This document shows, in pieces, positions 11,556-15,650 of a stretch of 15,650 nucleotides of DNA. The DNA comes from a virus (lineage: Duplodnaviria > Heunggongvirae > Uroviricota > Caudoviricetes). Under the pieces are notes generated by a model. That model did no database searches. It was not told where the DNA came from and saw only the letters and a program-made list of their open reading frames with translations. The stretch lies in the IMG/VR virus record IMGVR_UViG_2703718817_000011, one strand, 5' to 3'. The translations under genes and the position numbers were made by a program. Position 1 is the stretch's first letter. Each line of letters begins with the position of its first letter.

Positions 11556-11757
11556 AAAGCATCCCCTGAATATTCGTGTTAATCATTCCGGCACGTTTTG
11601 TGATTTCCTGTAATGATTCCCTTGTGGCGACAATTGCTTCATCTGGTAAGTGGTAATTACACACCACGCGACCTTTATCCACATTGACCAGTAGCTGCCC
11701 TGTGAATTTCTCACGAAACTGAATGCGGTTAAGGTCAGTAAGTGACAGATTAATCAT
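11545..11757 (-). CDS. Hypothetical protein (70 aa)
   Basis: ATG 11757 preceded by a strong AGGAGGTG SD and overlapping the upstream stop. Confidence 0.5.
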   Translation of the reverse strand: MINLSLTDLNRIQFREKFTGQLLVNVDKGRVVCNYHLPDEAIVATRESLQEITKRAGMINTNIQGMLYAQ

Positions 11758-12307
11758 GGCGCACCTCCTGACGAATACGGGCGGCAAATACAGCAACACA
11801 ACCGGACGGGCAACGGTTACGCGCTTCGCGTTCCGTCCAGGCGGTTACGTGGATGATTTGATGGTCTGACGCGCCAAAGGCAATAAAGCGCCAGATAAAG
11901 GCTGTTTGAGAATGTACGAGGGCAGGGGTAGTAGCCATGTTGGCAGCCTCCTCAGTGTGGTTAAGATAACCGCCACGCAAAAGGCTAATTTCGCTGGTGG
12001 CGGACTGTACAGGGTTAGCCTTACCGGACACTGAAGAAACCGGCGCGGATTGCTCCGCCCCCGTACAGCCCACCATTGATAAGGTGTGACTATGCGGCAC
12101 AAAAAAACACGCGGGACGCGTGCTGTGCGCTTCAGTTGTTTTCAGGAGGCTAATCCCGACACCCGTTTTATGAGGTGCGCGGGAATCATAGCTATTTTCG
12201 ACACTGGCGATCAACTGGTTTTTTTCTCCGATATTCAGGGCCAGAAAACGCCACACAAAGGCAGTTTGTGTGTGTACAAGGTGTGGTATATGATTTACAG
12301 CAACCAT
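11750..12307 (-). CDS. Icd-like (P4 host cell division inhibitor-like) protein with tandem duplicated domain and internal start
   Basis: ATG 12307 with an AGGAG SD; two copies of an LVH(T/S)QTAF(V/I)WRF segment; second in-frame ATG at 11938 has its own GAGGAGG SD; Icd-like call from recollection of P4-like island proteins. Confidence 0.5.
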   Translation of the reverse strand: MVAVNHIPHLVHTQTAFVWRFLALNIGEKNQLIASVENSYDSRAPHKTGVGISLLKTTEAHSTRPACFFVPHSHTLSMVGCTGAEQSAPVSSVSGKANPVQSATSEISLLRGGYLNHTEEAANMATTPALVHSQTAFIWRFIAFGASDHQIIHVTAWTEREARNRCPSGCVAVFAARIRQEVRHD

Positions 12308-12398
12308 AACGGCTCCTAGTTTACGTTGTTGGTTAGAAGCCCTGCGAGTGGTAACGACACTTGCGGGGCTTTGTCTTTTCATCGATTACCTTGATAAA

Positions 12399-12487
12399 GG
12401 TGTCAGCCACTATATTAGTAACGGGTGTCAGCCACGTCAATAGTGTTTTTCCGTTTTCTTGTGTGTATACTGTCAGCCACCTAATAA
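12399..12487. promoter_or_regulatory. Divergent promoter/operator region with three direct repeats of GGTGTCAGCCAC
   Basis: Repeats at 12399-12410, 12424-12435 and 12470-12480; minus-strand TTGACG-17nt-TAATAT (12435-12440 and 12412-12417) with a repeat in the spacer; plus-strand TATACT (12466-12471) or TTGTGT-17nt-TAATAA. Confidence 0.45.
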
Positions 12488-12501
12488 CGAGGAAATCAGA
12501 T

Positions 12502-12681
12502 ATGGCAACAAAAGCAGTTAATGCAAAATCCAAAAAGCTTGAGGCTCGAGTACCACACGCAATAGCTGATGCTGTAGAAAATTTAAAGGAAGATGGCGAA
12601 AGTACAGGGCAATTTATCGTTTCGGCACTTGAAGGCGAGATCAAACGCCGCCAGCGCCGCAAGGCCAAAGAATCAGAATAA
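12502..12681 (+). CDS. Ribbon-helix-helix (CopG/Arc-like) DNA-binding protein, 59 aa
   Basis: ATG 12502 with a GGAA SD; predicted beta-strand/helix/helix layout (KLEARVPHAIADAVENLKEDGESTGQFIVSALEGEIKRR); divergent from the replication operon. Confidence 0.55.
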   Translation: MATKAVNAKSKKLEARVPHAIADAVENLKEDGESTGQFIVSALEGEIKRRQRRKAKESE

Positions 12682-12738
12682 TCACTATCAGCGCCGTGGT
12701 GTGAGGTACTACGGCGCATTGCTTTACAGGGCAGTATC

Positions 12739-12966
12739 ATGACCAACAACACACTATCACCAATACAAGACACGCAAACGCAAGATGATGAATTCATCCG
12801 GCAAAGGCAGTCAGAAGCCTGCGCCAGACTTGAGGAAGAACTAACCAGAACAAAAATACCACCACCAGCGCCGCGCTTAGTGCCACCAGAAAAATTTGCC
12901 CTTGAAGATTTTGTCGATAAATACCCACGGCGGCTTAAATCCGGCAAAAACCGACCGCCAGGATGA
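12739..12966 (+). CDS. Small protein of unknown function (75 aa), partner of the upstream RHH gene
   Basis: ATG 12739 follows the conserved 44-nt hairpin element; paralogous to 13423..13626. Confidence 0.45.
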   Translation: MTNNTLSPIQDTQTQDDEFIRQRQSEACARLEEELTRTKIPPPAPRLVPPEKFALEDFVDKYPRRLKSGKNRPPG

Positions 12967-13084
12967 GTGCACAAAACCGAACTATGAAACGGATTATTCC
13001 GTTTCCGGGGCGTTTGTGTGTGTATAAAGAGTAAGCTATGCTCTTTTATAGCCATAATCGTTCCTCAATTAATGGTTTGGTTAG

Positions 13085-13128
13085 ACGCCCCGTATGTGTT
13101 CCCATCACTGCGGGGCGTTGTTTTTTGT
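13085..13128 (+). terminator. Intrinsic terminator after the first RHH module
   Basis: 8-bp GC-rich stem ACGCCCCG / CGGGGCGT followed by TGTTTTTTG. Confidence 0.5.
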
Positions 13129-13185
13129 GCTAGTTGTGTGTAATGTGTATATACACATAAACACATTATATGGGGTGTAATTGAC

Positions 13186-13365
13186 GTGTCAACACACAAA
13201 AATGAAAGGCGTGGTAATCCTCCTTTCCAGTTCCGTTTAGATCCTGACTTACGGGAAAAGATGGAAAAAGCACAACAACAAGACGGTGATGACTCTTTAG
13301 CTGCTTGGATAAAACGAATAATCCGAAAAGAATTACAGCAACGCGGTATTGAACCCAAAGAATAA
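13186..13365 (+). CDS. Arc-like ribbon-helix-helix protein, about 59 aa (start uncertain, GTG proposed)
   Basis: Not in the ORF track (below 60 aa with a non-ATG start); hand translation gives VSTHKNERRGNPPFQFRLDPDLREKMEKAQQQDGDDSLAAWIKRIIRKELQQRGIEPKE, resembling P22 Arc; GGGGTG SD-like 8 nt upstream. Confidence 0.5.
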   Translation: MSTHKNERRGNPPFQFRLDPDLREKMEKAQQQDGDDSLAAWIKRIIRKELQQRGIEPKE

Positions 13366-13422
13366 AAAACATCAGCGCCGTGGCGTGAGGAACTCCGGCG
13401 CATTGCTTTACAGGTACACACA

Positions 13423-13626
13423 ATGACCAATAAAGAATCAACCAATACACCATCGCAAAAAACGAACAGAGAGCACGAAAATATGGCGCTCGAGCATGAA
13501 TCAGAAAGATTCGCTCCATGCGCTTTTGTCCTTGATGAGTTTCTAAAAAAATATTCACGTTCTGAACGGATGAAAATGGCAGCACAATACGGCCCCAACA
13601 AGCAAGGTAATTGCCCACCAGCCTGA
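13423..13626 (+). CDS. Small protein of unknown function (67 aa), paralogue of 12739..12966
   Basis: ATG 13423 follows the second copy of the 44-nt element; both proteins start MTN and share a C-terminal F(A/V)L(E/D)(D/E)F..KY.R motif. Confidence 0.45.
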   Translation: MTNKESTNTPSQKTNREHENMALEHESERFAPCAFVLDEFLKKYSRSERMKMAAQYGPNKQGNCPPA

Positions 13627-13699
13627 TAGCGGCTATCATTCCCGTGCTTATGTTTGGGATCACATACACATAAGGCGCAGCAGGTTAATTGTTCAGAAA

Positions 13700-13728
13700 G
13701 GCGGCTCCATATCGGGGCCGCTTTTTTT
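13700..13728 (+). terminator. Intrinsic terminator after the second RHH module
   Basis: GCGGC / GCCGC stem followed by seven T. Confidence 0.5.
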
Positions 13729-13869
13729 ATGCCTGAAAAACCCCAATTTTGTTGTTTTTCAGTTTCACCAGGGCGAACGAATCCCCGCCCACGTTCGGGC
13801 GCATATTCAATCTTCATAGTTATATCTCTGTATTAGTGGATGTGTGGCGACTGTGTGCCGCCAGTCTTT

Positions 13870-14058
13870 TTAGTGAACTGCCTTGCAGCTATCCTTCCAG
13901 GCCAAAACCTCAGATAAAGACCAGCCAACAGAACGCCCACCAAGTTTACGACGTGATGGGAATTGTCCGGCCTTTTCCAGGCGGTAGCGGCATGAGCGGC
14001 TAAGGCCTGTTAGCTTTTCGCATTCTTTTTCACGTATAAACCGATCAGTGCTTAACAC
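13870..14058 (-). CDS. alpA: AlpA-family phage regulatory protein (excisionase/transcriptional regulator-like)
   Basis: 62 aa, apparent GTG start with an AAGGGGG SD; winged-helix excisionase-like sequence (LTGLSRSCRYRLEKAGQFP ... GWSLSEVLAW); downstream of and co-directional with int. Confidence 0.78.
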   Translation of the reverse strand: MLSTDRFIREKECEKLTGLSRSCRYRLEKAGQFPSRRKLGGRSVGWSLSEVLAWKDSCKAVH

Positions 14059-14219
14059 TATTGCCCCCTTTCGTTTCTTAAAGAGTTATTTCGTGTTCTA
14101 TTGCGTTGGGATGTGTCTGATTGTGTCAGGATGATTCAGAGTTGGCAAATGTTGGTGTCGCATGGTTTACAGAAAGAGGAATAATCAGGATAAAATCATT
14201 TAAATTCATGTTAATACAA

Positions 14220-14249
14220 AGGCATAAAATCTTGTTTTATGCCTTTTTT
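14220..14249 (+). terminator. Strong stem-loop plus T-tract in the int-alpA intergenic region
   Basis: 10-bp stem AGGCATAAAA / TTTTATGCCT, 5-nt loop, then TTTTT; could act bidirectionally to end int transcription. Confidence 0.45.
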
Positions 14250-14340
14250 CGCACACTTTAACGCGTAATTCACTAATGTATAAAAAACCAGCTGAGCATT
14301 AAAAATCAGCAACTTACAAATCTGTATTCTTTTTGGCCTC

Positions 14341-14390
14341 TTGTTCGTGATTGTGTCACGTTGTTGCACATTGTTTCTCGTTGTATCTGT
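14341..14390. repeat. Five helically phased decamers each beginning TTGT
   Basis: ttgttcgtga ttgtgtcacg ttgttgcaca ttgtttctcg ttgtatctgt with an exact 10-bp period, between int and alpA. Confidence 0.55.
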
Positions 14391-14432
14391 GCACTTATCC
14401 AGTATGCGCATACTGAAAAAACACGAAAAAAA

Positions 14433-15650
14433 TTATTTTATTCTGGTTACTGGTAGCGTGGTTACGTTTTCATGTGTTCCCGCCAGTATCTCCAACCGCT
14501 CCACCCACATATCAAGCGCATTGCGTTTCGCATCAATATAGCGGGAATGGTTGTACACGCGTTGCATTCCTGGCATCTGGTGGCCTGTAAGCTGCTCCAC
14601 GACGTGAGGATCAACGCCTAAATCGTTCAGCATGGTTGTAAAGGTGCGCCGGATGTCATGCAATGACCATTGAGGGTGTTTTAGCCTCCTGTGCGCTAAT
14701 CTGCCGTACTGCGATACGCTAGCCTCCTGTTTCACTTCCCCCAGTAATAAGCCCGTGTGCCTGTTCTGGTCCACCAGCCGCGTGACGAACGGCAGGATCG
14801 CTTCCGGTATGGGCCGGAATATTGCAACCTTCGTTTTGCTGTGCTCCTTCGGAACGGTCCATAGCATTTCGGTAAAATCCCACTCGCTGATCTCCGATAA
14901 CCTCAGTTCTACCGTCCTGGCTCCGAAGACAATCAGGAGGCGGATTAACGCGACGTAGTAAGGAGAAAATATTTTTTTATCCAGCGCCTGCAATAACTCG
15001 CCCAGTTCTTTGGTGCTTAAGACACGTTCGCTTATATCCGGTTTTTTCCCAACGTCCGCCACGTTCAGATCATCGAGAACGTTGCTGATTGCAAAGCGCC
15101 GCCTCCGGCAGAACTTAAGCGCCTGCTTGCATGTCTGTAGCACGAATCCGGCAGTAACAGGTGTTCGCTTTGCCACCTGGTCAAAACAGGCCAGCCAGTG
15201 CCGTAGCTCGCATTTATCCAGCGGCATAGCGCCAATGTACTGTATTACGTGATTATTAAGTCGCCTTTTCAGGGCGATATAATCCACGCGGTTTTCCTTT
15301 ACGTACGACTCAAGCCAGTAGGTGAGCGCATCGCCAACCGTTACCGGCTTTAACGCTTCCTGTACGGCGTAATTCATCTCATGGCGTGGATTTTTCCCCT
15401 CCGCCAGCCATGCGCGACACTGGGCGGCTTTTTCCCTGGCTGCTTTCAGGCTCAGATCAGGATAATTTCCCAGCTTAATACGTTCCGGTCGTGTCTCTCT
15501 TCCCGTTCCTGCCCTGTAAGTGAAATACCAGGTTAATTTCCCTGATGTTAAATATTTCACGCTCAGATTTCCGCCATCGCTATAAAACGTGTTTTTCTCC
15601 GCTGGCTTACCATGAAGTTTCCTTAGCAAGGTATCGCTCAGTTTGTTCAT
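14433..15650 (-). CDS. int: Tyrosine-type site-specific integrase (phage/P4-like family)
   Basis: 405-aa ORF whose start codon is the last three bases of the window; C-terminal catalytic signature HDIRRT ... H ... Y and an N-terminal arm-binding-like domain. Confidence 0.9.
   Translation of the reverse strand: MNKLSDTLLRKLHGKPAEKNTFYSDGGNLSVKYLTSGKLTWYFTYRAGTGRETRPERIKLGNYPDLSLKAAREKAAQCRAWLAEGKNPRHEMNYAVQEALKPVTVGDALTYWLESYVKENRVDYIALKRRLNNHVIQYIGAMPLDKCELRHWLACFDQVAKRTPVTAGFVLQTCKQALKFCRRRRFAISNVLDDLNVADVGKKPDISERVLSTKELGELLQALDKKIFSPYYVALIRLLIVFGARTVELRLSEISEWDFTEMLWTVPKEHSKTKVAIFRPIPEAILPFVTRLVDQNRHTGLLLGEVKQEASVSQYGRLAHRRLKHPQWSLHDIRRTFTTMLNDLGVDPHVVEQLTGHQMPGMQRVYNHSRYIDAKRNALDMWVERLEILAGTHENVTTLPVTRIK

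Follow-up and report, generated by a model that had tools for sequence, protein, structure and literature searches.

Two plus-strand cassettes of like layout lie between alpA and the leftward replication operon of a satellite recorded as IMG/VR virus IMGVR_UViG_2703718817_000011 (Caudoviricetes), whose 15,650 nucleotides we refer to as the window. Judged by Pfam matches, the gene content of the window is that of an Escherichia coli capsid-forming phage-inducible chromosomal island (cf-PICI; PICI for the islands in general). Each cassette, or module, includes a gene for a candidate ribbon-helix-helix (RHH) repressor, RHH1 or RHH2, and a small partner open reading frame (ORF). We focus on the control region of module 2, where an earlier, sequence-only reading had proposed two palindromic operators for RHH2. 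Module 2 reads on the plus strand from a hairpin through a palindrome to RHH2 and orf67, and the mapped and predicted features of the site are as follows.

13084–13126, plus strand: intrinsic terminator between modules 1 and 2, a stem-loop with a T-run
13118–13146, plus strand: P_R2, weak candidate promoter of RHH2 (TTGTTT, 17 nt, TAATGT)
13136–13169: half-site-like TGTGT(A)/(T)ACACA repeats, a broader group surrounding O1, with column conservation of at least 90% from 13137; within it, GTAATGTGT (13140–13148) has an inverted copy at 13161–13169, which is ACACATTAC in most relatives and ACACATTAT in the window
13143–13158: O1 (ATGTGT-ATAT-ACACAT), perfect palindrome with conserved arms, centred at -36.5 from TGTCAA; proposed primary operator of RHH2
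13165–13192, minus strand: P_L2, leftward sigma-70 promoter match (TTGACA at 13192–13187, 16 nt, TATAAT at 13170–13165)
13184–13199: O2 (ACGTGT-CAAC-ACACAA), imperfect copy of O1 on the P_L2 -35 hexamer, the GTG start and RHH2 codons 1–5; candidate second operator
13186–13365, plus strand: RHH2, 59 aa with a GTG start, an Arc-like and distantly YlcI/YnfO-like repressor candidate
13423–13626, plus strand: orf67, the small partner ORF of module 2, matching phrog_21027 (function unknown)

The palindrome and promoters upstream of RHH2

Both repeats named by the sequence-only reading are present: the 16-bp palindrome ATGTGTATATACACAT at 13143–13158, identical to its own reverse complement, and the inverted repeat TTGAC-GT-GTCAA (TTGACGTGTCAA) at 13181–13192. 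The window holds three perfect palindromes of at least 16 bp (318–333, 13143–13158 and 14400–14415), and when the window was shuffled with its dinucleotides preserved, at least one arose in 133 of 500 cases (27%). For 5+5 inverted repeats with a 2-nt gap, arithmetic predicts about 15 in 15.6 kb (15650/4^5). As neither repeat alone exceeds chance, the case for an operator must rest on position and on relatives.

We collected 80 IMG/VR loci related to RHH2 at 73–98% identity, which reduced to 55 distinct upstream sequences. Columns 13137–13200 were at least 90% conserved among these, and 13127–13135 were variable. The O1 arms ATGTGT and ACACAT were complementary at all six positions in 41 sequences, at five of six in 12 and at four of six in 2. 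The central 4 bp took eight forms, the commonest being CATT; another, AATT, also yields a perfect 16-mer. Because the arms are kept while the centre varies, the functional unit appears to be an inverted repeat with an unconstrained centre, of which the perfect palindrome is a local variant, and this conservation excludes chance as the origin of the O1 palindrome. The second repeat fared differently. Position 13183, in its left arm, is either G or A among relatives: TTGAC is the most frequent form but accounts for only about 50%, and TTAAC is the chief alternative. TTGAC-GT-GTCAA is therefore not selected as a palindrome; conservation is confined to the right arm, which coincides with the P_L2 -35 hexamer within RHH2 codons 1–3. 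Of the two proposed operators, then, the 16-bp palindrome behaves like an operator of the adjacent Arc-like RHH gene, and TTGAC-GT-GTCAA is not supported as one.

The repeats had also been described as overlapping the likely promoter and start region of the RHH gene. A rightward candidate, P_R2, can be made out there by eye, although it was not among the matches of our promoter scan. The dominant promoter, which the sequence-only reading had missed, lies on the opposite strand: P_L2 is the sole 12/12 consensus match in the scan of 12000–14500, and about 0.006 such sigma-70 matches would be expected by chance in the window. Its -35 hexamer (TGTCAA on the plus strand, RHH2 codons 1–3) is conserved in all repressor classes described below, and its start is predicted near 13158, at the right edge of the palindrome. 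Since the palindrome lies at the predicted start of P_L2 and O2 lies on its -35 hexamer, the site would serve mainly as a switch for leftward transcription. Our conclusion is that the 16-bp palindrome very probably works as an operator, and that the switch it belongs to is directed mainly leftward.

The hairpin at 13084–13126 comprises 14 pairs, of which 7 show compensatory double changes among 24 relatives. In a minus-strand RNA many of its U.G pairs would become A.C mismatches, so the functional form is the plus-strand RNA; with a plus-strand terminator just upstream, transcription of RHH2 calls for a separate promoter between 13118 and 13185. A class-B element (see below) has TTGATT-16-TACAAT at the position equivalent to P_R2. 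A plus-strand intrinsic terminator precedes each of the two control regions (13084–13126 and 12336–12372), with compensatory changes and strand-specific U.G pairs, and in single-module relatives no plus-strand gene lies upstream of it. The terminator might end a short antisense RNA that, like the sar RNA of P22, would cover the point where translation of the Icd-like gene begins, including its ribosome-binding site; we identified no promoter that could produce it.

The candidate second operator, O2, lies 41 bp from O1, centre to centre. It departs from the O1 pattern by two mismatches in the window and by one in the most divergent relatives, L072 and L085. In relative L071 both O2 arms are altered jointly with the symmetry kept, the start codon changing from GTG to ATG and codon 4 from CAC to CAT. 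The wobble positions of RHH2 codons 2–4 are near-invariant (0.15–0.26 bit, against about 1–1.8 bit at most other degenerate positions). O1 and O2 together thus give at least two putative subsites overlapping a promoter beside the repressor gene, the arrangement by which we judged RHH operators. We also considered a class-A box at the position used in class B (-6.5 from TGTCAA), where TGTAATTGAC is only half-palindromic; O2, centred on the -35, was preferred.

RHH2 is a real plus-strand coding gene, as indicated by summed column entropies of 24.9, 13.7 and 67.2 for the three codon positions in 47 distinct homologous coding sequences. The protein matches phrog_228 (Arc-like repressor) with an E-value of 1.5e-6. 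Its score against YlcI_YnfO_N / NF041551, 20.0 bits, lies under the cut-off of 30, so by score it is not a family member, and a profile-profile comparison of the RHH2-type and YlcI-type proteins was collinear and weak; at a probability of only 11% we do not claim homology from it. A single-sequence AlphaFold model places helices at residues 20–31 and 35–52 after an extended N-terminus (mean pLDDT 69); this is a monomer, and the N-terminal strand can form only in a dimer. A Foldseek search with the model gave no match, which is uninformative either way given its small size and modest confidence. A ribbon-helix-helix fold is likely.

Exchange of boxes with the repressor class

Relatives of RHH2 share a common C-terminal half (DGD.SLA.WIKR..RKELQ.RG) and differ at residues 4–20, the N-terminal arm and beta-strand, by which we speak of repressor classes (A, B and others). 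Where the repressor N-terminus is different, the palindromes are also different and lie in the same places, and all relatives keep TGTCAA in codons 1–3. The pairings were these.

N-terminus MSTPLEKRSPPYQMRLPE: boxes ATGGTAATTACCAT, AGTAATTAAG and GGGTAATTACC
N-terminus MSTPKEKRSPQYQMRLTE: box GGTCGTTACCAT twice, and GGTAAGTACC
N-terminus MSMQELKKSPQYQMRLSE: box GTAATTAC three times
N-terminus MSIPEKRSPQFPMRLNE: GTATATAC-type boxes
N-termini MSRDKTKTDQYQMRLPH and MSSEKAKTDQYQLRLAH: box TGTAATTACA

The ATGGTAATTACCAT boxes belong to a class-B repressor. Measured from TGTCAA, the upstream palindrome of class A is centred exactly at -36.5, as it is in most of class B; in the others the centre falls between -33.5 and -40.5. 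Co-variation alone could reflect linkage, as the 5’ end of the repressor gene adjoins the boxes; linkage alone is insufficient, however, because each control region repeats its own class-specific motif two or three times.

The same relation holds for the other type of cassette, to which module 1 of the window belongs.

Module 1, plus strand: a hairpin at 12336–12372, three GTGTCAGCCAC boxes within 12399–12480, RHH1 and orf75
12399–12410 and 12424–12435 (GGTGTCAGCCAC) and 12470–12480 (CTGTCAGCCAC): boxes of module 1, which flank P_L1
12440–12412, minus strand: P_L1, leftward promoter (TTGACG-17-TAATAT)
12502–12681, plus strand: RHH1, YlcI/YnfO family member (60.6 bits against a cut-off of 30) and so annotated in RefSeq

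Each YlcI-type control region has three boxes on the general pattern GTG-N6-CAC; about ten box types occur, and the type changes with the repressor class. A leftward TTGACG -35 has a box on either side, and the third box comes after a conserved TATACT. The prototype PICI EcCICFT073 follows the same three-box rule, with GGTGTGGCCCAC twice and CTGTCCCCCAC once. In the window, neither module has a copy of the other module's box type. The sequence-only reading had noted that the palindrome differs from the GTGTCAGCCAC repeats of module 1, which is the case, and had supposed distinct DNA specificities for the two modules; this supposition is now well supported, because in both module types each set of repeats co-varies with its own repressor class across relatives.

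Predicted leftward transcription and the proposed control by RHH2

In the single-module relatives L002, L003 and L005, the RHH gene is directly divergent from an Icd-like gene, which is followed by DUF4222 and the primase or helicase gene. Because of this divergent arrangement, the P_L2 homologue in these elements is the replication operon promoter. The window and relative L004 have the second cassette placed upstream of the first. In the window, the Icd-like gene in front of P_L2 is reduced to its first 15 codons (MAIKEHSLLFIHTQT), with a Shine-Dalgarno sequence GAGGAA at 13066–13061 and an ATG at 13055; MAIKEHSLLFIHTQT matches the Icd-like N-terminus of relatives. Two long ORFs read leftward here.

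12333–13055, minus strand: 240-codon ORF from the truncated Icd-like start, antisense through module 1; first ORF on a predicted P_L2 transcript
13065–13817, minus strand: 250-codon ORF antisense to RHH2 and orf67, beginning 53 nt after the alpA stop

The 240-codon ORF ends 26 nt short of the next Icd-like ATG (12307). Taken as a whole, the minus-strand frame between 13817 and 12333 has 2 stop codons in 495 codons. We compared this with a null in which synonymous codons of the four plus-strand genes were resampled and the spacers shuffled; 14.4 stops were expected, and none of 5000 trials gave 2 or fewer. Across the RHH gene, 58 of 66 distinct relatives have no stop in the antisense frame, with open stretches of up to 607 codons. 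In EcCICFT073, alpA is followed after 53 nt by a 428-aa ORF that has the Icd-like protein as its end, and nested antisense within it are a YlcI-type gene, a small ORF and the boxes. The stop-free frame resembles the eta/kil of satellite P4. In work attributed to Forti et al. in 1999, P4 eta is said to be a long ORF over the immunity region, the translation of which lets transcripts from the upstream promoter escape Rho-dependent termination.

Several further observations touch on these frames. Open antisense frames in relatives include L004 440–2263, L005 1282–2283 and L247 7767–9053. In the EcCIEDL933-like element of O157:H7 strain 1130, the class-B RHH gene (L005 1610–1783) is unannotated in the RefSeq record, and PGAP names the antisense strand (L005 1633–2226) an Icd-like pseudogene. 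The first base of the predicted P_L2 transcript is the A of an AUG, which opens a 17-codon ORF (MCIYTLHTTSTKNNAPQ; 13158–13105, minus strand) that ends within the terminator hairpin. In class A this AUG is not in the long open frame; its class-B equivalent shares the reading frame of the long ORF and the Icd-like gene. Translation from the P_L2 AUG without a leader is conceivable.

From the position, conservation and class-specific exchange of the boxes, we consider it fairly likely that O1 and the weaker O2 are operators of RHH2, and that bound RHH2 shuts P_L2 and limits its own synthesis. The layout that we propose infers the binding, the start sites, the sign of regulation and what becomes of the P_L2 transcript. 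RHH2 dimers would occupy both sites. On O1 they would cover about +1 to +16 of P_L2 together with the -10/start region of P_R2; on O2, the P_L2 -35 hexamer and the RHH2 start codon. P_L2 would then be off and synthesis of RHH2 from P_R2 limited. A transcript from P_L2 would pass the truncated Icd-like start and then the stop-free 240-codon frame antisense to module 1, toward the replication operon.

A number of observations weigh against this reading. The O1 centre ATAT is limited to the window's own lineage, which makes the perfect 16-mer a lineage-specific variant. Most relatives have, in addition to O1, an overlapping repeat with 9-bp arms, TGTGTAATG-TGT-CATTACACA, centred at -40, 3.5 bp left of the O1 centre, and in most class-A relatives it is the stronger palindrome. 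This longer overlapping repeat, together with additional GTGTAAT/ATTACA(C/T) copies in most relatives, leaves the exact unit recognized ambiguous from sequence alone. The conservation of O2 could have other causes, including selection on translation initiation, as it lies in coding sequence and on the -35 hexamer. The -10 of P_L2 is TGTAAT in most relatives, without the key A at position 2, and the P_R2 match is weak. As for the protein, the fold assignment comes from a single-sequence monomer model; RHH2 has no Pfam family, and a PDB sequence search with a 17-sequence RHH2 profile returned chance-level matches only (E > 0.5). Finally, the beta-strand positions predicted, by alignment to Arc, to contact bases look similar in classes A and B, so these positions give no clear account of the specificity.

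The conserved block might instead consist of opposed overlapping promoters, a ribosome-binding site and first codons, with palindromy a by-product of back-to-back -10-like hexamers (TGTAAT/ATTACA). Hexamers of this kind do occur four times in the class-A consensus, one of them being the P_L2 -10, and O2 does coincide with a -35 hexamer and a start codon. Promoter elements, however, should not change wholesale with the repressor class, as the boxes do while TGTCAA stays. The O1 arms moreover lie downstream of the predicted start, outside any promoter consensus, and the YlcI-type regions follow the same three-box scheme with boxes that bear no relation to promoter hexamers, all of which makes this account unlikely in our view. 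The palindrome might also be bound by a protein other than RHH2, such as AlpA, the small partner ORF, or a helper-phage or host factor. AlpA, of which there are several alleles, is an activator in Gram-negative PICIs and the only induction route described there (PMC6092414). Against another binder, the boxes persist in L002 and L003, which have no gene but the RHH gene between the Icd-like gene and alpA, the box type follows the N-terminal third of the RHH protein, and no other gene of the single-gene modules is linked to the class; we hold a different binder to be quite unlikely.

Module 2 could also be a toxin-antitoxin-like or accessory cassette, in which RHH2 would be an antitoxin autoregulating its own two-gene operon with no role in the leftward operon. 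Palindromic autoregulatory operators are typical of RHH antitoxins, the gene order of RHH followed by a small ORF fits, and RHH2 has a faint match to a VapB-type antitoxin model (E 0.012). Yet orf67 and orf75 match no toxin or defence family in PADLOC, Pfam, NCBIfam or PHROG, the RHH gene stands alone in many relatives (L002 and L003, for example) with partner ORFs often absent, and the strongest promoter points away from the cassette and in relatives fronts the Icd-like gene and replication operon. On balance such a cassette is very unlikely. Least probable of all is a role as RNA, in which the palindrome would form a hairpin that affects stability or translation, either where the leftward transcript begins or in the RHH2 5’ untranslated region. 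A start at 13158 would put the palindrome first in the leftward RNA, and a variable centre fits a loop. The hairpin is nevertheless weak (-5 kcal/mol, z about -1.2) and lies outside the best fold of a longer leader, its arms are conserved in sequence with no compensating pair changes, and class B has another copy of its box upstream of the predicted start, outside what a leftward transcript would include.

Control of P_L2 by RHH2 has a possible wider meaning, which we offer tentatively and consider doubtful as a whole. RHH-plus-box cassettes of both types may be the missing repressors of Gram-negative PICIs and cf-PICIs, each class-specific pair of repressor and operator locking a strong internal leftward promoter of the replication operon, with the cassette placed antisense within the long, stop-free, eta-like ORF after alpA. 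AlpA-driven read-through, kept alive by translation of the eta-like ORF, would bypass the lock, collide with the repressor gene and flip the element to replication; tandem cassettes would make a double lock. An RHH repressor acting on overlapping opposed promoters is an already known kind of system; this family and its role in PICIs are undescribed. We found no paper describing these RHH-plus-box cassettes in PICIs, and nothing relevant in the literature on YlcI/YnfO function or on RHH proteins in PICIs. A phage satellite family without a described repressor now has a candidate, with concrete operator and repressor candidates in this cf-PICI, in the O157:H7 EcCIEDL933-like element and in the prototype EcCICFT073. 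The natural series of co-varying N-termini and boxes could be used for studies of RHH specificity or for orthogonal repressors. Should RHH2 not bind the site, the finding would shrink to a conserved strong promoter of unknown control.

Known systems and neighboring features

The nearest known arrangement is the immI region of P22, where the RHH repressors Arc and Mnt have operators on the overlapping opposed promoters Pant and Pmnt. Module 2 would be analogous in having a small RHH-type repressor, a palindromic operator on overlapping opposed promoters, one strong and one weak, and probable autoregulation; like mnt, RHH2 is encoded opposite to the strong promoter. It differs in that no sequence relationship is detectable beyond the weak Arc-like PHROG match, in having at least two boxes 41 bp apart where P22 has one operator of 17–21 bp, and in that the first codons of RHH2 contain the -35 of the strong promoter. 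The operon that would be controlled is the satellite replication operon, whereas in P22 it is the antirepressor gene. RHH2 also resembles the YlcI/YnfO proteins of E. coli prophages and PICIs (NF041551) in size, in its predicted strand-helix-loop-helix layout and in a D-G-D/E loop. A class-A RHH2 homologue in L003 is annotated by RefSeq as a member of that family, and the three-box control logic is common to both. In RHH2-type cassettes, however, the start codon overlaps the leftward -35, and in YlcI-type cassettes it lies about 60 nt away.

The left operon of satellite P4 comprises PLL, vis, eta/kil, PLE, seqA and the CI RNA. The window is similar in having an AlpA/Vis-type gene, then a long ORF over immunity RNAs with a Kil/Icd-like end, then replication genes, with isrK as the seqA-like and C4 as the CI-like element and several leftward promoters stacked upstream of the immunity region. 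To our knowledge, P4 has no antisense RHH cassette inside eta. The window element, unlike P4, has the cf-PICI gene set and makes its own capsid; no P4 markers turned up in the window, in which no screen was aimed at them. Stl and Rpr, the master repressors of Gram-positive PICIs, are likewise encoded divergently from the replication operon and next to int (PMC6092414). RHH2 and RHH1 would be their functional counterparts if they hold the leftward operon off, although the fold of RHH2 is unrelated to theirs and its size differs.

The element spans about 15.6 kb, bounded by a tqsA fragment and int. Pfam found the cf-PICI set of int, alpA, replication gene, TerS, TerL, portal, protease and capsid over about 15 kb; the products other than int and AlpA are a RepA-type AAA_25 protein, an HNH protein, TerS, TerL, portal, prohead protease and major capsid protein. 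EcCIEDL933 has been described with the same gene set (bioRxiv 10.1101/2022.09.08.507074). The region 12300–13900 is 100% identical to chromosomal DNA from bovine E. coli strains, and related sequences are present in 1319 of 5426 complete E. coli genomes. The flanking features are as follows.

14433–15650, minus strand: tyrosine integrase (int)
13870–14058, minus strand: alpA (Phage_AlpA, E 5e-18)
11750–12382, minus strand: eta/kil-like leftward ORF that holds isrK and the C4 RNA and has an Icd-like peptide as its C-terminal end
12102–12178, minus strand: isrK (Rfam, 61.6 bits, over the gathering score)
11993–12080, minus strand: C4 RNA (Rfam, 75.4 bits, over the gathering score)

The isrK and C4 models are reported to pick up relatives of the seqA target and CI immunity RNA in PICIs (PMC10111431), and the background on CI and seqA of satellite P4 is given in PMC4825925 and PMC10111431. 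When a phage collection was searched with 11700–13400, the isrK/C4 stretch alone gave matches (Stx and P1-like phages); the RHH region had none, and no DNA similarity to P4 was seen. An Icd-like motif occurs twice in the window (HTQTAFVWRF and HSQTAFIWRF, within 11750–12307) with isrK and C4 in between. Strain RM10466 is identical to the window rightward of 12300, yet has one 64-aa Icd-like gene (L001 2814–3008) in the stretch compared; the immunity RNA cassette is therefore apparently present or absent among close relatives. A promoter-like site on the minus strand at 12185–12214 (TTGATC-18-TATGAT, 9/12), inside the first Icd-like ORF, would start near 12178, the first base of the isrK match, and would correspond to PLE of P4. 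PLE is a constitutive, immunity-sensitive promoter.

Between each RHH gene and its partner ORF lies a conserved, plus-strand GC-rich hairpin (GCGCCGTGG...CCGGCGC; 12691–12717 and 13375–13401), within a 75-nt stretch that is 80% identical across the modules (12675–12749 and 13359–13433); it could be an attenuator or a processing site. The other two perfect 16-bp palindromes of the window are TATGGGGATCCCCATA (318–333), near the tqsA end, and CAGTATGCGCATACTG (14400–14415), just past the int stop; about 0.25 perfect 16-mer palindromes would be expected per window, and three are observed. A 12+12 inverted repeat, AAAGGCATAAAA-N5-TTTTATGCCTTT, lies at 14218–14246, between int and alpA. One single-module relative has a TIR-domain gene between the RHH gene and alpA (L003 1892–2698), and this interval therefore also hosts accessory, possibly defence, cargo.

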